NCBI GenBank assembly: GCA_016176685.1
Contig: JACOWS010000002.1
Span: 30,608-94,607 of the forward strand
Direction: 5' to 3'
Origin: Patescibacteria group bacterium
GTDB taxonomy: Bacteria; Patescibacteriota; Minisyncoccia; Phycocordibacterales; SBAW01
DNA length: 64,000 nt
The notes below the pieces were generated by a model. That model was not told the DNA's origin, did no database searches, and worked only from the letters and a program-made list of their open reading frames with translations. The position numbers and the translations under genes were made by a program. Of this stretch, positions 709-62,428 are shown in pieces. Position 1 is the first letter of the stretch, and every line of letters begins with the position of its first letter.

Positions 709-1944
709 GTGGATATGGAAAAAGCGTACACCCCCAGTAAAGTAGTATTAAAGCGCTATGCCGACGTGCTGGTCAAGTTTGCACTTAACCACGGCAAGGG
801 TATTAAAAAAGGAGACGTAGTCAACATCAACGGGCCGGAGAGTTCTAAGCCGCTGTTTTTGGCTGTACGCACGGCAATTTTAAAAGCTGGCGGGCATGTG
901 ATACAGCACTACCTGCCGGATGACGACGACCGCTACAATTTTAGCGCCACGTTTTTTGAGCATGCCAAAGCGCATCAGCTCGACTTTTTTCCGCAACACT
1001 ACTTTAGGGGGTTGGTTGACCAAATGGACCATGTGTTGTTTATACTCGGCAACACCGACCCGCATGCGCTCAAAGGTGTCCATCCTAAAAAAATCATGCG
1101 TCGCGGAGAGGCGATGAAGCCTTACCTAAACTGGCGCCGGCACAAGGAACATCAGGGTAAATTGTCTTGGACTATCGCACTCTACGGCACGCCGGCTATG
1201 GCAAAAGAGGCCGGCCTTTCACCCCGCGCTTACTGGAAGGAAATCGAAAAGGCCTGTTTTCTAAAAGACAAAAACCCCGTCGCCGCTTGGCGCCGCGTCT
1301 ATCGCGACATCCACGCTTACAACCGCAAACTTGACGCCCTTTCTCCTTACATTGAAAAACTCCATATAGAAGGAGCTGATGCGGACCTCTGGATTACTCT
1401 GGGCAAAAAGCGCAGGTGGCTCTCCGGCCGCGGCGCCAACGTACCTAGCTTTGAGATTTTTACCAGCCCCGACTGGCGCGGAACCGAGGGCTGGATACGC
1501 TTCAACCAGCCGCTCTACCGCTACGGCAGCCGTGTAACCGGCATTGAGTTGTGGTTTAAAAAAGGCCGTGTGGTAAAAGCAAAAGCCAAAACAGGCGAGA
1601 AATTGCTTAAAGAGATGGTACACACCCCGGGAGCTGATAGGGTGGGGGAGTTTTCGCTTACAGACAAGCGTTTTTCCCGCATTACCAAGTTTATGGCGGA
1701 AACTTTGTTTGACGAAAACATCGGCGGACCCCAGGGCAACACACACATCGCGCTTGGCGCCTCATATGCCGACTCTTACGCGGGCGACGTACGCACACTG
1801 ACAGAGAAGCAAAAGATAAAGCTCGGCTTTAATGATTCCTCCGTGCACACCGACATCATCTCCACCGCCAAGCGCCGTGTTGTCGCGCACCTCTTTGGCG
1901 GCAAAACAAAAGTGATATATGAAAATGGCGAATTTGTTATATAA
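709..1944 (+). CDS. M29 family aminopeptidase (AmpS/PepS-like)
   Basis: 411 aa; the overall sequence is typical of thermophilic metalloprotease family M29 (e.g. '...GPQGNTHIALG...'). Confidence 0.8.
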   Translation: MDMEKAYTPSKVVLKRYADVLVKFALNHGKGIKKGDVVNINGPESSKPLFLAVRTAILKAGGHVIQHYLPDDDDRYNFSATFFEHAKAHQLDFFPQHYFRGLVDQMDHVLFILGNTDPHALKGVHPKKIMRRGEAMKPYLNWRRHKEHQGKLSWTIALYGTPAMAKEAGLSPRAYWKEIEKACFLKDKNPVAAWRRVYRDIHAYNRKLDALSPYIEKLHIEGADADLWITLGKKRRWLSGRGANVPSFEIFTSPDWRGTEGWIRFNQPLYRYGSRVTGIELWFKKGRVVKAKAKTGEKLLKEMVHTPGADRVGEFSLTDKRFSRITKFMAETLFDENIGGPQGNTHIALGASYADSYAGDVRTLTEKQKIKLGFNDSSVHTDIISTAKRRVVAHLFGGKTKVIYENGEFVI

Positions 1945-3329: not shown

Positions 3330-4226
3330 ATGATAAAACCCATCACTCTTACTCGCACTACCTACACTTTTTTATTCGCAACAGCTTCTCTGTGTCTTGC
3401 GGTACTCATCACCATACAGGTGCCGCCATTTATGGGCGTGCCGGTTGAAGCTAAGGAGCTGGCGGTATTCCCCGCTCCTATCACGCTTCCCGCGGAGGAT
3501 ATAGCAGCAAAAGCGGCCGTGCTTTATGACCCAACCACCGGCCAGATTTTATTTGCAAAAAATGCTACAAGGCCTCTCGCGCTCGCGTCCCTTACCAAAC
3601 TCATGACCGCGCAGGTCATTTTGGCTCAATCCAGCGAACAGCAGGTAGTTACCATTACTTCGCAAAACTTGCGGCCGGAAGGCGACTGGGGTCTCCGTCC
3701 CGGAGAGAAGTGGTCGGTTGAGCAATTGCTGCGCTTTGGTCTTGTCGCTTCAGCAAACGACGCAATGGCCGCAGCCGCGGATGCCATTGGCCCCACCATT
3801 ATCGACGAGATGAACCGCACCGCAAGGGTCTTGGGGCTTTCGCAGACGCACTTTTCAAACCCTACCGGGTTGGATCTCGACCTGGAAACCGCCGGGGCGT
3901 ATGGGTCGGCCTACGATGTCGCGCTTCTTGCAACCTCTTTTATGCAACGCTATCCGACTCTTTTGGGGGCTACCGCCCAGCCGTCAGTTACCATAACTTC
4001 AGGCGAAGTACAGCTTAACGCCACCTCAACCGACACGCCGCTCTTGGACATCCCAGGGCTAGTAGGTGCAAAAACAGGATACACTGACCTGGCAGGCGGC
4101 AACCTTATTGTTGTGTTTGATGTAGAGATAGGACATCCGCTTATTGCGGTTGTGCTCGGTTCAACGCGCGAAAAACGTTTTGATGATATACGTGCTCTGG
4201 TGGTGGCCGTGCGCGCCAAACGATAA
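3330..4226 (+). CDS. D-alanyl-D-alanine carboxypeptidase (serine-type, S11/PBP5-like)
   Basis: SxxK (SLTK), SxN (SAND) and KTG (KTGYT) motifs; N-terminal signal/TM segment. Confidence 0.8.
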   Translation: MIKPITLTRTTYTFLFATASLCLAVLITIQVPPFMGVPVEAKELAVFPAPITLPAEDIAAKAAVLYDPTTGQILFAKNATRPLALASLTKLMTAQVILAQSSEQQVVTITSQNLRPEGDWGLRPGEKWSVEQLLRFGLVASANDAMAAAADAIGPTIIDEMNRTARVLGLSQTHFSNPTGLDLDLETAGAYGSAYDVALLATSFMQRYPTLLGATAQPSVTITSGEVQLNATSTDTPLLDIPGLVGAKTGYTDLAGGNLIVVFDVEIGHPLIAVVLGSTREKRFDDIRALVVAVRAKR

Positions 4227-27099: not shown

Positions 27100-27228
27100 A
27101 GTTGGACTTACGAAGTCCAACTTTGGGGACAAATGGCTTGACAAACAAGCAAAAATCTGCATAATCTGTAACGGAAGTGTTGCGTTCCTACCAATCCTAA
27201 AGTTGGACTTACGAAGTCCTACTTTCCA
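27098..27228 (+). promoter_or_regulatory. Consensus sigma70-like promoter (TTGACA at 27138-27143, CATAAT at 27160-27165) flanked by two copies of the 27-bp palindrome AAAGTTGGACT-TACGA-AGTCCAACTTT
   Basis: Palindrome 1 is at 27098-27124 (perfect). Palindrome 2 is at 27199-27225 (one arm degenerate). The -35 and -10 boxes are 16 nt apart. Confidence 0.6.
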
Positions 27229-38774: not shown

Positions 38775-38803
38775 TTGACAAATACATAATATAGGTATAT
38801 AAT
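38775..38803 (+). promoter_or_regulatory. Perfect consensus sigma70 promoter (TTGACA-17 nt-TATAAT) driving the 85-aa ORF divergently from mraZ
   Basis: TTGACA at 38775-38780 and TATAAT at 38798-38803; AAAGGAG Shine-Dalgarno upstream of the ATG at 38869. Confidence 0.65.
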
Positions 38804-38868
38804 TAATATTAGAAGAATCAAAAAAATAAAAAACGGGGAGGCGTTCGCCTCATCAAAGGAGTACAGAG

Positions 38869-39126
38869 ATGAACACTTCAAACCCCTTCGACTTCAAAAG
38901 AATTCGAGGGGAAATAAGGGACATCGCCGACGCTGCGGCGCAGCGTCGGCGAAAGGGCTTGAGGGTTATTGCCCTCTCCCTTCTGGCGGCGCTGGCCGCA
39001 ATGCTCGTCGCAGTCGCAGCGAGCATCCAGACCTTGCCCAGGGCAGGGTTGGACTACGAGGGCATCAAGGTCCTCTCGGAACGGGCTGCGTTTGAGCAGC
39101 TCGTCGCGGATGCCAGCCGCCAGTGA
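38869..39126 (+). CDS. Small hypothetical membrane protein (85 aa)
   Basis: Strong promoter, Shine-Dalgarno and a downstream intrinsic terminator; one TM helix (LRVIALSLLAALAAMLVAVAASI). Confidence 0.6.
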   Translation: MNTSNPFDFKRIRGEIRDIADAAAQRRRKGLRVIALSLLAALAAMLVAVAASIQTLPRAGLDYEGIKVLSERAAFEQLVADASRQ

Positions 39127-39132
39127 GTTTAG

Positions 39133-39172
39133 GGGTCGTCTGCGTTTGAGCAGACGACCCCATTTATTTTTG
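39133..39172 (+). terminator. Rho-independent terminator (ggggtcgtctgc...cagacgacccc followed by a T-tract)
   Basis: 12-bp perfect stem followed by ATTTATTTTT. Confidence 0.75.
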
Positions 39173-49710: not shown

Positions 49711-49795
49711 AGCGAAGCAAAAACCCTTTGCGAAGGAGTAGGGTTCCCGTTCATCTCTCCTTTGCAAAGGGTTTTTGAGCAGTTTACCGCTTCGC
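49711..49795. repeat. Family 2 conserved-loop hairpin, copy B (loop GGAGTAGGGTTCCCGTTCATCTCTCC; inner 13-bp stem plus outer 7-bp stem)
   Basis: aaaaaccctttgc / gcaaagggttttt plus gcgaagc / gcttcgc. It lies between the mreB-2 stop (-) and the holB-like start (-). Confidence 0.8.
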
Positions 49796-50797
49796 TATGA
49801 TTGCTTTTTTGTAGGAGTCGAGGTGCTCGAGTGCCACCCCGGTGCCGCGCACCACGCAAAACAGCGCGTCTTCTGCCAATTGGGCTTTGACCCCGGTGCG
49901 GCGCAGAACCAGCTCGGGAAAGTTGCGCAGTTGCGAGGTGCCGCCCGTCATGGTTATGCCGCGGTCTATTATGTCGGCGGCCAACTCCGGCGGCGTTTCT
50001 TGCAGTACGTTGCGTATCGCTTTGATAATTTCGCGCAGCTCTTTGCCCATGGCGCGCACCACGTCGTTGGTCTTGAGCTCAAACTGACGCGGGAGCCCCG
50101 ATACAAAGTCGCGGCCGCGTACCTGCATGGCCAGCTCGTCTTCGACCGGCACGGCGGAGCCTATTTCTATTTTTATCCGCTCGGCGGTCTTTTCGCCTAT
50201 GCCGAGGTTATAGGTCTTCTTTACAAAATCGGCTATCGCGTGGTCGAGCCGGTCTCCCGCACACTTCACCGAGGTGGAGGCGACAATGCCTCCCAAGGAA
50301 ATTACCGCCACGTCGGTGGTGCCGCCGCCGATGTCAACCACCATGTTGCCGCGCGCCTCTTGTATGGGAATCCCTGCACCAATGGCCGCGAGTACCGGCT
50401 CTTTAACCACATAGGCGGCGCGGGCGCCGGCGCGTATCGTCGCCTCTACCACCGCGCGCCGCTCGGTCGAGGTCACCCCGGCGGGGACCGACACCATCAC
50501 CTCGGGGCGAAATAGTTGGAAGCGTCCCATTGCTTTGCGTATAAAGTAGCGCAGCATCGCCTGGGTCACGCGGTAGTCGGCAATAACACCGTCTTTAAGC
50601 GGCCGGTAGGCGATGATTTCCTCCGGCGTGCGGCCTATCATCTCCTTCGCTTCAACCCCGACCGCTAGGATGCGTTTGTCGACGTCGGAAATAGCTACCA
50701 CGGAGGGCTCGTTTAAAATAACTCCCCTCCCCGGCGCGAACACCAGGGTGTTGGCGGTGCCGAGGTCAATACCGAGTTTTGGGTTAAAGAAAGACAT
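49784..50797 (-). CDS. mreB: Rod shape-determining protein MreB (paralog 2, Mbl-like)
   Basis: 'LGIDLGTANTLVFAPGRG...' full-length actin-like ATPase. Confidence 0.9.
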   Translation of the reverse strand: MSFFNPKLGIDLGTANTLVFAPGRGVILNEPSVVAISDVDKRILAVGVEAKEMIGRTPEEIIAYRPLKDGVIADYRVTQAMLRYFIRKAMGRFQLFRPEVMVSVPAGVTSTERRAVVEATIRAGARAAYVVKEPVLAAIGAGIPIQEARGNMVVDIGGGTTDVAVISLGGIVASTSVKCAGDRLDHAIADFVKKTYNLGIGEKTAERIKIEIGSAVPVEDELAMQVRGRDFVSGLPRQFELKTNDVVRAMGKELREIIKAIRNVLQETPPELAADIIDRGITMTGGTSQLRNFPELVLRRTGVKAQLAEDALFCVVRGTGVALEHLDSYKKAIIAKR

Positions 50798-50829: not shown

Positions 50830-52149
50830 ATGCAGACAACGCTCAATTTTAATATTGAGGGCGGGAGGAAGTTGCACGGGACCATCGAGATAAACTCCTC
50901 CAAAAACGGCGCGGTGGCGCTTTTGTGCGCCTCGCTCCTTAACCGCGGCATTACCACGCTAACCCGCGTGCCAAAAATAGAAGAGGTTAACCGTCTTATA
51001 GAGGTACTGCTCTCTATTGGGGTTGGGGTGGAGTGGCACGGAAGCACCGTTACCATCACCCCGCCAAAAAAATTTACACTTGGCGCGATAGACCGCGCGG
51101 CCGCAGAGAAAACCCGCAGTATTTTGATGTTTACCGGGGCGCTGGTCCACTCGCTCGCCTCTTTCTCGCTCCCGCAGGCGGGCGGTTGCAAGCTGGGCTC
51201 TCGCACGGTGCGCCCACACCTCTTTGCGCTCCAAAAGTTTGGCGTGGCGATAAAAACCACCAGAAGCTTGTGGCGGGTTACGCGCTCGAACTTGCACCGG
51301 GGAGAGGTGGTGATGTACGAGTCCGGCGACACCGCAACCATCAATGCGCTTTTATGTGCCGCCGGAATACCGGGTAAAAGCGTCATCAAGTATGCCTCGG
51401 CAAACTACCAGGTGCAGGAGGTGTGTTTTTTCCTCCAAAAACTCGGCATACAAATAGAAGGGGTGGGCACTACGACGCTAGTGGTCAATGGCAAAAAAGT
51501 AATCAAAAAAAACGTCGCCTATTCCGTGAGCGAGGACCCGACGGATGCGATGTTTTTTCTCGCGGCGGCAATAGTGACCAACTCTTCTATCACCATACGC
51601 CGCTGCCCAATAGACTTTTTAGAGCTCGAACTTTTGGTGTTGGAAAAGATGGGCTTTTGCTACCACATACTGCGGCGCTACAAAGGTCGCGGAGGGCGCG
51701 TACATTTGGTTGATATAAAAACCTTCCCTGGCTCGCTCATTGCGGCGCCGGAAAAAATCGCCGCGCGCCCCTACCCGGGGCTCAATATGGACAATCTGCC
51801 GTTTTTTGCGGTCATCGCCACCCAAGCTAAGGGCACCACGCTTATACATGACTGGGTGTACGAAAAGCGCGCACTGTACTTTACCGAGCTCGACAAGCTG
51901 GGCGCCACCACGCTTTTGGCCGACCCGCACCGCATCTACATCACCGGCAAGACTCCGCTAAAGCCCGCCGACCTGGTGTGCCCGCCGGCATTGCGGCCTG
52001 CAACCATTTTGCTTATCGCGATGCTCGCGGCGCCCGGCCGCTCGACCCTGCGCAACGTCTACAGCATCAACCGCGGGTACGAGGGGCTCGCTTTAAAGCT
52101 TTCTTCTTTGGGGGCGCGGGTGGAGCTGGTTGAGGAGTCTCACCCGTAG
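50830..52149 (+). CDS. murA: UDP-N-acetylglucosamine 1-carboxyvinyltransferase MurA
   Basis: EPSP-synthase fold; 'KLHGTIEINSSKNGAVALLCASLL' N-terminus. Confidence 0.9.
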   Translation: MQTTLNFNIEGGRKLHGTIEINSSKNGAVALLCASLLNRGITTLTRVPKIEEVNRLIEVLLSIGVGVEWHGSTVTITPPKKFTLGAIDRAAAEKTRSILMFTGALVHSLASFSLPQAGGCKLGSRTVRPHLFALQKFGVAIKTTRSLWRVTRSNLHRGEVVMYESGDTATINALLCAAGIPGKSVIKYASANYQVQEVCFFLQKLGIQIEGVGTTTLVVNGKKVIKKNVAYSVSEDPTDAMFFLAAAIVTNSSITIRRCPIDFLELELLVLEKMGFCYHILRRYKGRGGRVHLVDIKTFPGSLIAAPEKIAARPYPGLNMDNLPFFAVIATQAKGTTLIHDWVYEKRALYFTELDKLGATTLLADPHRIYITGKTPLKPADLVCPPALRPATILLIAMLAAPGRSTLRNVYSINRGYEGLALKLSSLGARVELVEESHP

Positions 52150-52510
52150 GGCTACGACCGAGGGTGTGCTTTTTAGGATTTATTTCCCACCAGAACTTTT
52201 TTGAGAAATTAGACGCTTGGTCGCACACGCTTTTAAGATAGTACAGGTCTTTGGTGGGGATAGCTTGGAGTACCCGCCCCATGCGCGGCATGGTTAAGGG
52301 CAAAATGCCGTCGCGCGCGCGCGAGCGGTTGAGCGCTTGAAGAAAGTATTGCATCAGCTCGCCGCGCTCGGTGGCGCGTTCTTTTTTACTGGTGATCGCT
52401 TTGATGTGCGCCCTGATGTGCTCCACTGCTCTATTGTACCCCTTGGCGTACCTCTAGCCCGCCTATGGGCAGTAGGTTGACAAAAAACAGGCAATCGTGT
52501 AGCATACCTA

Positions 52511-52702
52511 CTAGTAGTTGCATATTTACTTCTTTCAGGTGTCTTCGGCACCCCCCGCTCTCCGAAGGCTGCCTGACTGAAGGCCGGGGGCGCTTCACAG
52601 CGGCACTCCGGCAAAAGCGGCGCGACGTCATTCCCCCCGCGTTGCGCCTGTTTCGGCCGGTTCGCTTGTCTCCCACCCAAGCGAACCGGCCTATTTTTTT
52701 AT
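52511..52702 (+). ncRNA. Candidate small RNA (about 190 nt) between a TTGACA/TAGCAT promoter (52476-52504) and a strong intrinsic terminator (52655-52702), upstream of def
   Basis: GC-rich and internally self-complementary (e.g. ggcgc...gcgcc; cttcgg tetraloops). Terminator ggccggttcgcttg...agcgaaccggcc plus T9. No convincing ORF; no match by eye to SRP, 6S or RNase P RNA. Confidence 0.4.
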
Positions 52703-52727
52703 AAAAAAATATTTTAGTATAAATAGT

Positions 52728-53261
52728 GTGAAAGCGACAAAAGACCCGATAGTGCAAAACGGCGAGGAGGTGCTGCGCCAAACCGCCGCCCCTATTGCAA
52801 AAAAAGACATCGCCTCGCGCGCAGTGCGCGGGCTTATCGCTCGGATGAAGAAAGTTTTAAACAAAGAGCCGCACGGCGTGGGGCTTGCGGCCTGCCAGCT
52901 GGGGGTGCCGCTCCAGCTGTTTATCATCTCCGGCCGCGCGTTTGTTGCTGACCACAAAAACCAAAAGCAAGAAAAAAAGCTCCCCCCCGACCTGGTGGTG
53001 ATAAACCCGGAGTTGGTTCGCAGTTCTAAAAAACAAAAAGAGATGTCGGAGGGGTGTCTTTCGGTGCGCGGCAAGTACGGCTCCGTGGTGCGGTTTGAGA
53101 AGGTGACCATACGCGCGCTAGATGAGAGCGGAAAGCCGTTTGTATACAACGCATCGGGCCTGCCGGCGCATGTTATCCAACACGAGCTCGACCACCTCCG
53201 TGGCCAACTGTTTATCGACAAAACAAAAAAACTCGAAGAGTGGGAGGATGACCATGAGTAA
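52728..53261 (+). CDS. def: Peptide deformylase
   Basis: Motifs 'GVGLAACQ', 'EGCLS' and 'HELDH'. Confidence 0.9.
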   Translation: MKATKDPIVQNGEEVLRQTAAPIAKKDIASRAVRGLIARMKKVLNKEPHGVGLAACQLGVPLQLFIISGRAFVADHKNQKQEKKLPPDLVVINPELVRSSKKQKEMSEGCLSVRGKYGSVVRFEKVTIRALDESGKPFVYNASGLPAHVIQHELDHLRGQLFIDKTKKLEEWEDDHE

Positions 53262-54129
53262 ACCCATGCCTCGATGTGCCTTTTTTGGGACGCCGCAGTT
53301 CGCGGTGCACGCTCTTAAAGCGCTTGAGGCGCAGGGGCTCTCGCCTGCGCTTGTGGTAACCGCGCCAGAGAGGCCGGCAGGCCGCGGGCTAAACCTCCAA
53401 CCATCCCCCGCAAAAGTGTGGGCCGAGGAGCGCGAGATAGATGTACTTGAGCCCTTAAGTCTTAGGGATAAGTCTTTTGTAGCCGAGCTTGGCAATACCG
53501 ACTGGGATGTGTTTGTGGTCTCGGCCTATGCCAAACTCATCCCAAAAAATATCCTTGACATCCCGCGCAAGGGCTCGCTCAACCTCCACCCATCGCTCTT
53601 GCCGAAGTTTCGCGGGCCCTCGCCGGCCGTCTCCGCCATCTTGGCAGACGAGCGCGCTACCGGCGTCTCTGTCATGCTGATGACCGAAAAGATGGACGCG
53701 GGGCCGGTTTTAGCGCAGGCCCGCATCGAGCTGGAAGAAGGTGCGGATGGGTGGCCGCCCACCGGTTCTTTTTTGGAGGAGCTCTTGGCAACCGAGGGCG
53801 GCAACCTTCTGGCGGAAATTTTGCCAGAGTGGCTCGCGGGTACCCTTACACCCGAGCCGCAGGACGAAAGCAAGGCGACGTACACACACAAGTTTAAAGA
53901 CCAAGATGCTTTGGTCGACCTCATGGGCGACGCGCGCCAAAACCTCTTAAAAATCCGTGCATTCGACCAGGGCCCGCGGGCGCATTTTTTTACAAAAGAC
54001 GGCAAGCGAGTACTCATCACCGACGCCCGCATAAGCGACAGTACTTTGGAAATCCTCAAGGTAATCCCCGAGGGGAAGCGGGAGATGTCGTATGAAGTGT
54101 TTGCCAAACGAGAAGCAACACAGAAGTGA
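53253..54129 (+). CDS. fmt: Methionyl-tRNA formyltransferase
   Basis: N-terminal formyltransferase domain 'RCAFFGTPQFAV' and C-terminal domain. ATG overlaps the def stop (ATGAGTAA). Confidence 0.9.
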
Positions 54130-54186: not shown

Positions 54187-54549
54187 TTAAAACCTATCGC
54201 GCAAGCCGCGTAGCATATCTTTTATAATCGCTCCGCTACGGCGCACCAGCACCAGGGCGCGCTTTTTATTGCGCCGCACCACGCGCGTAAACTCGGAGGC
54301 GGCCAAGTCTATCGCCTCGTGCATGGTATCGCCGCGCTCCTCTGCCCGGTACGTTTCGCCCCCGGCGGTGGCGGTAAACTCGGCGCGGTTCTTCTTGCCG
54401 CGCTCACCACCTAAAAACTGGAGCTCGACATCTACATGCACGGTCGAGTCCCCCGCTAAAAATTTGTCCGCCAGCTCAAGTTTGGCTTCTACATAAGCGC
54501 GCAATTCTGGAGTAATAGAGACATCGGTGCCCTTGATGTTGTAGTGCAT
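54187..54549 (-). CDS. hpf: Ribosome hibernation promoting factor / ribosome-associated inhibitor A (HPF/RaiA)
   Basis: 'MHYNIKGTDVSITPELRAYVEAKLELADKFL' sigma54-modulation-protein fold. Confidence 0.85.
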   Translation of the reverse strand: MHYNIKGTDVSITPELRAYVEAKLELADKFLAGDSTVHVDVELQFLGGERGKKNRAEFTATAGGETYRAEERGDTMHEAIDLAASEFTRVVRRNKKRALVLVRRSGAIIKDMLRGLRDRF

Positions 54550-57444: not shown

Positions 57445-57747
57445 CTAGGCCTTGAGAGCCGTGACGTTGTAGCCGAAGCTCTCGGCCAGAGCCACCGCCA
57501 GCATCTCGGTGTCGCCCAGCGGCATCGACAGCGTGTGGCCGTCGGCGCCCTGGATCACGGCCGTGCCACCGACCTTGGCGAAGCGCCCGCTGTTGATCGT
57601 CTTGCCGTCGCGGGTGGTGCCGTGGGCATCCTGCCAGCCGCGGATCGAATCGATCGGGATGAGACCGGTGTTGTAAGCGTCGATGTTGACGGGGACGGTC
57701 TTGGCGCGGTGGCGAGTGCTCGGCGAGAAGGAACGATTGCTGTTCAT
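57445..57747 (-). CDS. Hypothetical protein (100 aa) in a 65% GC patch immediately upstream of tRNA-Asn
   Basis: GGAGG Shine-Dalgarno 7 nt upstream of the ATG (MNSNRSF...). Confidence 0.5.
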   Translation of the reverse strand: MNSNRSFSPSTRHRAKTVPVNIDAYNTGLIPIDSIRGWQDAHGTTRDGKTINSGRFAKVGGTAVIQGADGHTLSMPLGDTEMLAVALAESFGYNVTALKA

Positions 57748-57965
57748 AAATGAACCTCCGTTTGTGTGTATTCGCTCCCCTGCCCTGCAAAAAGGGCTAG
57801 GGACAGCGAAATCGGCCACCATTGGCCGACCAGAGGAGCTTAGCATAGGCCAATTTTGGTGTCAAGCTCCGCGGGTAGGACTCGACCTAGAGCTTTGTGA
57901 CTCCGGCCACATTCTTGATATGACAAAATCCATAAAATTAGGTATAGTTTTTTTGTTCGACATAT

Positions 57966-58250
57966 TCCGCGGTAGCTCAATGGTAGAGCAGCTCCCTGTC
58001 AGCAGGCAGCCTCCCACAGGAATGTGGGTTGCAAACGAGGTGAATTCGGGGAAATCCTAAGCTTTGTCGAAGGACAATCCCGAGCCAAGCTCCAGATTTT
58101 GGAGAAGGTGTAGAGACTATCCCGCAAGGGAGTACTCTCAAAAAGAGGAAGCCCCTCGCATCCAGAACGGATGATGATATAGTCCACGCCCGCAGTAATG
58201 TGGGGAAACGTGTAAGGAGTTGGTTGTAGGTTCGAGTCCTACCCGCGGAG
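57966..58250 (+). tRNA. tRNA-Asn (GUU) interrupted by a 213-nt group I intron in the anticodon loop (mature length 72 nt)
   Basis: Exons UCCGCGGUAGCUCAAUGGUAGAGCAGCUCCCUGU / UAAGGAGUUGGUUGUAGGUUCGAGUCCUACCCGCGGAG fold as tRNA-Asn with loop CUGUUAA and G73. The 5' splice site is after U, the intron ends with G, and a GCAGG internal guide-like segment follows the splice site. Confidence 0.7.
58000..58212 (+). ncRNA. Group I self-splicing intron (subgroup IC3-like) within tRNA-Asn
   Basis: Contains blocks nearly identical to the Azoarcus/cyanobacterial tRNA introns: AATTCGGGGAAATCCTAAGC, GAGCCAAGC and GAAGGTGTAGAGACTA (J8/7-P7). No ORF. Confidence 0.7.
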
Positions 58251-58482
58251 CCCAGTCCCCCGACCCCCGTCTGGGTAACCTCTCGGTTTCCCAACATCTC
58301 GCTACGCTCAATCCTTCCTCCACGAGGGACTAGGCGTCTTTTGCTCTGCAAAAGCCGAGGGTAGGACGAGAACGAGGGGTGGGTCGGAGGGGAAACTATA
58401 GTGTCCCCTCCGTGGAGGAAATTATTCAAAACCGTGGGTTTTGAAAGCGCAGTCTCGTTATAGCGGGACGAGCAGTGAGTAC

Positions 58483-58501
58483 TCCTACCCGCGGAGCCCA
58501 G
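58483..58501 (+). repeat. 19-bp exact direct repeat of the tRNA-Asn 3' end (TCCTACCCGCGGAGCCCAG; first copy 58237-58255); att-like
   Basis: Read directly from the sequence. This is the classical signature of site-specific integration at a tRNA 3' end. Confidence 0.6.
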
Positions 58502-58780: not shown

Positions 58781-58809
58781 TTGACAGAAATTATTAGGAA
58801 TCGTATAAT
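58781..58809 (+). promoter_or_regulatory. Perfect consensus sigma70 promoter (TTGACA-17-TATAAT) with an about 150-nt leader preceding the GC-rich ORF
   Basis: TTGACA at 58781-58786, TATAAT at 58804-58809. The leader contains an RNA-only 13-bp stem (two G-U pairs) and three GAACACGT motifs at 58920-58965. Confidence 0.6.
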
Positions 58810-58966
58810 ACATTGAGTTCTTTGAGAAAATCCCTTATTTGCCGTGGCAGAAAGCCCTTGAAAACAATCGAGTTTTTTCTGCTATGGCAAACCGAGGTCA
58901 GCTCGGAGCCCAATGGCCCGCAACACGTTCCGAGAGGAACACGTTGCATAACGGAGTGAACACGTC

Positions 58967-62149: not shown

Positions 62150-62428
62150 ATGCCGACCACAGACGATATCAAAAAATTCTGCGAAAGCATCGACTTCGAT
62201 TTATTGAAAAAGGCGAGGCGGAAAGAGTCTCTGACACCCGGCGAGCGCATCAAGGTACTTGCCGCACTCGCGTCGCCGACTCCATATATTAACGGTGGCA
62301 AGGTAGATGTGATGCGCAACCCCATCTTCGATCTTTCTTCAGTCGAAATTGCAAATATGTCTCGCGATAGAGGTTTCGCTGCAGCAGGCTACACGCCCGC
62401 AGCAATTGACTACATCCTACATCACTGA
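62150..62428 (+). CDS. Hypothetical protein (92 aa)
   Basis: Intact ORF followed by a hairpin plus T-tract (62450-62500). Confidence 0.4.
   Translation: MPTTDDIKKFCESIDFDLLKKARRKESLTPGERIKVLAALASPTPYINGGKVDVMRNPIFDLSSVEIANMSRDRGFAAAGYTPAAIDYILHH

Follow-up and report, generated by a model that had tools for sequence, protein, structure and literature searches.

A conserved, structured noncoding RNA gene with C-rich loops upstream of def-fmt in Patescibacteria

Published small RNAs (sRNAs) with C-rich loops pair with ribosome-binding sites, as described for the cuckoo/CcsR family (PMC4615179), for the UCCC motif of the Rsa RNAs and RNAIII (PMC2790875), and for RoxS/RsaE (PMC8216469). In the literature that we searched, no description of regulatory sRNAs of Patescibacteria was found. 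Here, we analyzed a 64,000-nt stretch of a Patescibacteria group bacterium genome (contig JACOWS010000002.1, hereafter the window) and a segment within it, directly before def-fmt, that a preliminary description of the DNA had picked out as GC-rich, self-complementary and ~190 nt long. This segment is a real, conserved, independently transcribed gene for a structured noncoding RNA (ncRNA) of ~190 nt and belongs to a new family; its expression and its exact 5′ end are predicted from the sequence. As is typical of sRNA genes, it has its own promoter, an intrinsic terminator and no conserved open reading frame (ORF), and it is intergenic between divergent genes. Coordinates of all features of the locus are collected in Table 1.

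The promoter of the RNA is of the sigma-70 type and matches 10 of the 12 consensus positions, so that the TTGACA-17-TAGCAT sequence named in the preliminary description is confirmed. In the 64-kb window, TTGACA-N16-18-TANNNT is found at five sites versus 0.78 expected, and none of 100 shuffles reaches five, which indicates that such promoters are real features of this genome. Judging from the position of the -10 box, transcription would start near 52512. At the other end, hairpin H4 forms an intrinsic terminator. Its 14-bp stem is as first described; the T9 tract proposed to follow it is instead T-A-T7-A-T (52692-52702), with seven consecutive T, which in the RNA reads U-A-U7-A (52692-52701). 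No T-run follows the terminator hairpin on the minus strand. A simple terminator scan that allowed loops of ≤8 nt missed H4 because the H4 loop has 9 nt.

The segment between these two signals is highly structured. The plus-strand fold of 52510-52702 has an energy of -90.5 kcal/mol versus a shuffle mean of -61.2 (z = -7.02), and none of 200 shuffles is as stable. The minus strand gives a z of only -2.92 with a poorly defined centroid; the plus-strand fold is better because several of its G-U pairs are A-C mismatches on the minus strand. G+C content rises to 0.71 within 52550-52649, compared with ~0.55 nearby, and the GC-rich, self-complementary character ascribed to the segment is thus borne out. 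In the minimum-energy fold, a predicted single-stranded 5′ segment is followed by four adjacent G+C-rich hairpins, H1 to H4. Three of the four hairpins present C-rich, anti-Shine-Dalgarno-like loops (CACCCCCCGCUCU, CAUUCCCCCC and UCUCCCACC).

The RNA is conserved in the close relatives. We obtained the closest Def relatives by exact-protein look-ups of Def clusters, which yielded four further species: L003/L004 (Def 84% identical; from a groundwater metagenome), L005 (82%), L006 (70%) and L001/L002 (identical to the window). L005 and L170 have the same RNA sequence. The next relatives of the window Def carry the labels Adlerbacteria, Kaiserbacteria and Paceibacterota. All close relatives have the same cassette upstream of def, consisting of promoter, structured RNA, terminator and a conserved AT-rich stretch. 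The promoter is kept in L003, L005 and L006 as TTGACA-16/17-TAGTAT, TAGTGT or TACTAT, the -35 region TTGACAAAA is unchanged across the close relatives, and their terminators share a GGCCGG...CCGGCC base followed by a T-run. A covariance model trained only on L003, L004 and L005 gives 91.6 bits (E ~2e-24) for the window RNA and 21.4 bits for L006; elsewhere in the 64 kb it finds only one 10-bit chance match, in a coding region.

Folded singly, the homologues share the multi-hairpin architecture (z = -6.9, -9.6, -5.9 and -4.0), with four hairpins in the window, L003 and L005, three in L006, and two in L019. H2 and H3 vary as modules between species; L006 lacks H3, and a different hairpin replaces H2/H3 there. 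The best-conserved unpaired sequence is the H1 loop, which reads CACCCCCCGCUCU in the window, CGUCCUCCCCGCUCU in L003, CAUCCUCCCGCUCUCU in L005 and UUCCCCGUCUCGUC in L006, with a conserved core CC(U)CCCCGCUCU. The motif UAGUUG in the 5′ segment is common to the window, L003 and L005. Around the H1 loop, the outer stem is retained between species despite near-total sequence change (UCAGGU/GCCUGA, CGGGUG/CACUCG and UUCUGG/CCAGGA).

Compensatory change extends to all four helices. In a plain MAFFT alignment, column-based covariation detected only one compensatory pair. This alignment misplaces the window sequence because bulges sit on opposite strands between species. We therefore split arms, loops and linkers, padded them with N and fitted them by hand, checking that the pieces rebuild the original sequences; the H1 outer stem, which MAFFT shifted, was omitted. 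In the hand-fitted alignment, 97.5% of 157 cells are paired, compared with 89.5% after shuffling and 31-44% after sliding by 1-3 columns, and 11 of 50 pairs are changed on both sides versus a shuffled mean of 3.8. None of 500 shuffles reaches any of the five alignment measures. Pairing amounts to 100% of cells in helix 1 (3/8 pairs doubly changed), 94.6% in helix 2 (4/14), 95% in helix 3 and 100% in helix 4 (3/14), and double-sided changes are present in every helix. In H4, for example, L006 has C-G in place of U-A, and the upper part of the stem shows both C-G to U-A and U-A to C-G; in H1, C-G becomes G-U or G-C.

The RNA matches no known family and has no coding capacity. Scanning the window with Rfam 15 at gathering scores assigned no family to the RNA, and its counterparts in six related loci have no match above threshold either. 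At E ≤ 10, the 52100-52900 region gave 13 matches, none of them 6S, SRP, RNase P, tmRNA, raiA-motif, riboswitch or RsaE, and across six related loci (L003, L005, L006, L018, L019 and L029) no family recurred for the RNA. Among the sub-threshold matches, Srn266 lies on the wrong strand and matches the terminator and the AT-rich tract. ARAGORN found no tmRNA in the window. The earlier judgment by eye that the segment matches none of 4.5S, 6S, tmRNA and RNase P is consistent with these results. An overlapping 79-aa ORF (52465-52704) begins upstream of the -35 box and has no Pfam match, and among the RNA homologues no ORF is shared in start, frame or peptide; the segment thus has no credible ORF, as first noted. 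With its own promoter and terminator, a structured and non-coding body, compensatory changes in relatives and absence from Rfam 15, it fits the novel sRNA proposed in the preliminary description.

Beyond the close relatives, the RNA comes and goes at a fixed site. We surveyed 166 def loci, among the matches listed, from GTDB representative genomes and JGI metagenomes (Def identity ≤59%). In these loci, the close relatives and the window, 39 sequences have a divergent small ORF beside def, and the spacer between the two is bimodal: 6-86 nt in 19 sequences and 186-555 nt in 20, with none between. This distribution fits a discrete inserted gene. Long spacers with a like cassette occur in L014, L018, L019, L124, L169 and L175, and in the truncated L171-L174. 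They have a TTGAC(A/G/C)-16-18-TAnnnT promoter, 2 to ~7 G+C-rich hairpins, whose loops are often C-rich, and a terminator placed against the def -10 box. In L029 and L045 the cassette is present and the small ORF absent, and L029 carries the unit of promoter, hairpins with C-rich loops and terminator twice in tandem before def (2008-2148 and 2205-2445). Sequence similarity at this distance is marginal (nhmmer E = 0.005 for L019). With filters off, the model gives L169 23.5 bits, L029 19.1, L019 15.3, L124 14.2, L018 12.6 and L045 11.1. These six are the best full-length matches outside the close clade and six of the seven best overall, all on the def-sense strand and in the same spacer (in L029 and L045, without the small ORF). 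In the short-spacer lineages (L020-L024 and others) the RNA would not fit, and the long spacer of L013 and L017 may instead contain a small ORF. Weaker homologues thus occur in about ten more Paceibacteria-like lineages, and the RNA is an accessory gene at a fixed site, with fast turnover, in roughly half of the sampled lineages. In L169, a 203-aa small-protein call (788-1399, minus strand) seems over-extended at its 5′ end, where it spans the RNA homologue at 1249-1460; the conserved start of this protein is at MKRISDL.

A -10 box just before the start codon is the signature of a leaderless mRNA, in which the start codon is the transcription start. The def gene appears to be of this kind, with its own promoter downstream of the terminator, because a -10-like box stands 7 nt before its GTG and no Shine-Dalgarno sequence precedes this codon. 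The box is kept at this distance in the close relatives, as TAGTAT or TACTAT. Of 156 def loci among the matches listed, 84 have a TANNNT hexamer 5-8 nt ahead of an open ATG or GTG in frame, compared with 0 and 4 in the other frames, most often at a spacing of 6-7 nt. Leaderless-type starts are also seen in 23 of the 72 crude ORFs of the window, often with a TGnTATACT -10 sequence, versus 1.7% of internal start-like codons; Shine-Dalgarno-type starts number 9 of 72 and are not above chance. The divergent small ORF also starts in the leaderless manner (TACAAT, 6 nt, GTG). In L007 and L008, a ~27-bp perfect inverted repeat before def (~2360-2450) surrounds a G+C-rich core of ~24 nt, which lies in opposite orientation in the two loci (TCCCCTTGGCAGCTCGCAGCGCTC versus its reverse complement) and is absent from the window; it may be an invertible segment or a hairpin-loop inversion.

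The loops of the RNA are its most telling feature. C-rich motifs (such as CCCC, CCUCC and CUCCC) occur in 9 of the 17 loops predicted for the window clade and, when all analogues are counted, in 18 of 42, compared with 59 of 2245 (2.6%) in random 200-nt windows of the same loci, an enrichment inflated by relatedness and by the choice of some analogues for their C-rich loops. None of the RNAs has a G-rich loop, and apart from the candidate RNA the 64 kb contain no cluster of strong hairpins with C-rich loops. C-rich loops resemble the 3′ end of 16S rRNA. This resemblance and the published cases lead us to favor trans-acting base-pairing as the probable mechanism. The RNA would be transcribed from 52477-52505 and terminated at 52655-52701. 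By pairing of its exposed C-rich loops with G-rich sequence, typically in the Shine-Dalgarno regions, it would block or modulate the translation of a few mRNAs, and the terminator would insulate def-fmt from the strong RNA promoter. We give about even chances to this reading as a whole, that is, a separate ~190-nt ncRNA gene that acts in trans through C-rich loops, beside a def-fmt unit that is leaderless and its own.

In the search for targets, the loops and the 5′ segment formed no better duplexes with the 5′ regions of ~70 crude gene calls than with random windows. Nor does any start codon in the window have a good match to the reverse complement of the H1 loop nearby. Shine-Dalgarno-led examples in the window are fmt and the genes at 38869-39126, 57445-57846 and 62150-62428. 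The H1 loop core CCCGCUCU is complementary to AGAGUGGG, which overlaps the fmt Shine-Dalgarno sequence GGGAGGA within the 3′ end of def. Ranked against random windows, the match falls in the top 1.5% in the window, 1.0% in L003 and 0.25% in L005, and the H4 loop of the window also pairs at the fmt site (0.25%). The same site encodes the conserved EEW of Def. From this complementarity, the fmt ribosome-binding site is a weak lead as a target of the RNA. Leaderless initiation depends on initiator-tRNA formylation; that an anti-Shine-Dalgarno-mimic RNA silences a few Shine-Dalgarno-dependent genes including fmt, and would thereby uncouple fmt from def and tune formylation, is very improbable in our estimate. 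The gene at 38869-39126, clearly Shine-Dalgarno-led, belongs to a unit at 38775-39170 on the plus strand that consists of a TTGACA-17-TATAAT promoter, a ~65-nt 5′ untranslated region with AAAGGAG, an 85-codon ORF whose product resembles a small membrane protein, and, at 39132-39160, a strong terminator. In its untranslated region, CGGGGAGG shows complementarity to the L003 H1 loop.

Several points weigh against trans-acting base-pairing by this RNA. Initiation regions in the window are not enriched for loop complementarity (mean -12.1 versus -12.7 kcal/mol in controls), and with Shine-Dalgarno-led genes so much rarer than leaderless ones, the classical target class is small. The match at the fmt site fails in L006 (22%) and in seven distant analogues (40-98%). 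The covariation statistics are weak, with only four distinct close sequences and an alignment fitted to the structure, and the loop enrichment carries the bias given above. Moreover, the constant position beside def across lineages could indicate a local role in cis.

Such a local role could take two forms. The preliminary description had offered a leader whose terminator acts as an attenuator for def; such an attenuator, or a riboswitch, would govern read-through into def-fmt. The RNA does lie immediately upstream of def on the same strand, and in the window, L003 and L005 the 5′ arm of the terminator, until the 3′ arm has been made, can form 5-6 bp with the 3′ side of H2 (CCGG(U)C/GGCCGG). 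This pairing is the sole option for the arm, and no alternative fold is as stable as the terminator: blocking it would cost 22.5, 21.5, 16.3 and 16.1 kcal/mol in four species. Read-through would in addition bury the def start codon, which has a conserved -10-like box and no Shine-Dalgarno sequence. The RNA has no multi-stem junction or conserved core like a ligand pocket, no riboswitch model matches at E ≤ 10, and about half of the syntenic lineages lack the cassette, with a spacer of only 6-86 nt. An attenuator leader is therefore very unlikely and does not hold up as a reading of the locus. Because of the leaderless layout of def, the buried start codon and the blocking cost of 16-22 kcal/mol, we conclude that the terminator is, as far as its sequence tells, constitutive and that the RNA and def-fmt form separate predicted transcription units. 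The other form is a cis element that modulates def-fmt by promoter occlusion or A/T-rich context, with the RNA as a by-product. The cassette always occupies the same spacer, the terminator U-tract lies ~15 nt from the def -10 box, the stretch between terminator and def is highly conserved, and the RNA body shows high sequence turnover. A by-product, on the other hand, would not be expected to show compensatory stem changes and a loop composition signature, termination needs fewer than four hairpins, and def does without the cassette in about half of the lineages. We consider this form clearly unlikely.

Other alternatives accept a separate RNA and assign it a different role. CsrB and RsmZ use repeated GGA loops for titration. 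By the same principle, the C-rich loops could titrate an RNA-binding protein (for example, of the KH-domain poly-C-binding type) or a G-rich RNA. A sponge of this kind would account for the modular build, in which 2 to ~7 hairpins occur by lineage and stems turn over while C-rich loops stay, and it would agree with the scarcity of Shine-Dalgarno sites in the genome and with the lack of an mRNA target signal in the window and fmt-site searches. However, no candidate partner protein is encoded beside the RNA, the neighboring small protein also occurs in RNA-less lineages and has no recognizable RNA-binding fold, and the loop motif is loose rather than a precise repeated site; a sponge is rather unlikely. 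The RNA could also be a divergent housekeeping RNA (6S, SRP/4.5S, RNase P, tmRNA or raiA-motif) that lies beyond the Rfam models in the candidate phyla radiation (CPR), where RNAs are often divergent, and a raiA-type hibernation gene lies 1.5 kb away. Yet none of these families matches at E ≤ 10 in the 800 nt searched or in the relatives, ARAGORN was negative, and four independent adjacent hairpins match neither 6S, which is a single long bulged helix, nor SRP RNA with its helix-8 motif, nor RNase P RNA in size. Many related lineages are without the RNA, which is unexpected for an essential one, so that this identity is extremely unlikely. Finally, an mRNA for a very small protein is a nearly negligible possibility: ORFs of 20-65 codons are possible in each homologue, but 1-3-nt indels break all frames, and the predicted 5′ end has neither a start codon nor a Shine-Dalgarno sequence. 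A trans-acting RNA that pairs through its C-rich loops is the reading that we retain.

Table 1. Features of the def-fmt locus and of the candidate RNA gene (window coordinates)
Feature	Position	Strand	Remarks
mreB	49784-50797	-	
murA	50830-52149	+	
Divergent small ORF without family	52067-52426	-	GTG start at 52426; conserved core ~52160-52426
-10 sequence of small ORF, TACAAT	52433-52438	-	6 nt before GTG; upstream edge of RNA-bearing spacer
Candidate RNA gene	52477-52702	+	Promoter to terminator tail
Sigma-70-type promoter of RNA	52477-52505	+	-35 TTGACA 52477-52482; 17-nt spacer; -10 TAGCAT 52500-52505
5′ AU-rich single-stranded segment (predicted)	52512-52528	+	Unpaired in minimum-energy fold
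Hairpin H1	52529-52582	+	Inner 8-bp stem GUCUUCGG/CCGAAGGC
H1 loop	52549-52561	+	C-rich, 13 nt, CACCCCCCGCUCU
Hairpin H2	52583-52612	+	Loop UCAC; base CCGG/CCGG conserved; upper stem and loop swapped between species
Hairpin H3	52615-52653	+	Loop CAUUCCCCCC at 52629-52638
Hairpin H4, intrinsic terminator	52655-52701	+	14-bp stem 52655-52691, 10 G-C pairs
H4 loop	52669-52677	+	9 nt, UCUCCCACC
-10-like box of def, TAGTAT	52715-52720	+	7 nt, then GTG 52728-52730; 3′ boundary of RNA gene
def (PF01327)	52728-53261	+	Pfam match
fmt (PF00551)	53254-54129	+	8-nt overlap with def
raiA-type hibernation factor gene	54187-54549	-	1.5 kb from candidate RNA

The small protein encoded divergently from the RNA has ~90 aa and is 70-90% identical in more than 1300 Patescibacteria proteins, far better conserved than Def. 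Its invariant motifs are TERGELM, IPT.DLYYL and FSKKFWWE. It has no Pfam, NCBIfam or PDB match, and AlphaFold predicts an all-helical structure (pLDDT 86) without a Foldseek match. In the window clade, the protein carries a proline-rich tail, whose coding sequence is antisense to the 3′ end of murA. Elsewhere in the window, full consensus promoters at 27138-27167 and 58781-58809 (both plus strand) have no obvious same-strand gene directly downstream, the second being followed by a long hairpin (~58835-58895); they could mark a further ncRNA or leader. A tRNA gene at 57965-58254 is split by a group I intron (Rfam Intron_gpI, 56.7 bits at 57986-58205). ARAGORN calls a tRNA when the intron flanks are joined and does not call the unspliced gene. 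The 3′ 17 nt of this tRNA, CCTACCCGCGGAGCCCA (58238-58254), are repeated 246 nt downstream at 58484-58500 in the manner of an integration scar. L005 also has a group I intron, at 3349-3652 (81.9 bits).

Regulatory RNAs of Patescibacteria (CPR) are essentially undescribed, and the RNA offers an entry into post-transcriptional control in a group whose members are reduced and mostly uncultured. As an RNA family it is new, and its phylum is poorly known, yet sRNA candidates of such a type are common. The family can enter RNA databases and improve the annotation of CPR genomes, and the compact layout, with a strong terminator abutting a leaderless def promoter, helps define promoters and transcription units in the group. 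If the loops target Shine-Dalgarno sites, the RNA would be an independent instance of the C-rich-loop solution known in Alphaproteobacteria and Firmicutes.

The described systems resemble the RNA to different degrees. Terminator-based 5′ leaders share a structured RNA that ends in an intrinsic terminator directly before a same-strand operon; here, in contrast, the downstream def has its own promoter and appears leaderless, and there is no comparable antiterminator and no junction core. Scr3202 (Streptomyces RNA 3202, RF02833), the best sub-threshold Rfam match, has two G+C-rich C-loop hairpins and a U tail that align to H3-H4. The score is 38.5 bits versus a gathering score of 52, it covers only 52615-52696, and the six related loci are unmatched, so that we reject membership and most likely see generic hairpin-plus-terminator features. 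RsaE/RoxS and the UCCC-motif Rsa RNAs and RNAIII of Firmicutes are also terminator-ended, and their unpaired C-rich seeds pair with Shine-Dalgarno regions (PMC8216469, PMC2790875). The present RNA has three C-rich loops, but it has no RsaE match at E ≤ 10, differs in length and hairpin layout, and resides in a host with mostly leaderless mRNAs; membership in RsaE/RoxS is rejected. The cuckoo/CcsR family of Alphaproteobacteria (CcsR1-4, RSs0680 and SmelC397; RF02791) shares 2-4 adjacent hairpins with C-rich, anti-Shine-Dalgarno-like loops, a variable hairpin number, compensatory stem turnover with sequence conservation that fades beyond the genus, and a conserved intergenic neighborhood (PMC4615179). 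Its tandem copies have a counterpart in the two units of L029. The loop nonamer CCUCCUCCC that defines the family (PMC4615179) is absent here, where loops contain CCCCCC, CCUCCCC and CUCCCAC, the CcsR1 model scores the RNA at 18.2 bits versus a gathering score of 65.3, and the setting is the phylum Patescibacteria and the def-fmt context. Membership in cuckoo/CcsR is rejected on these grounds as well. The RNA probably works most like the cuckoo family, and the resemblance is probably convergent.

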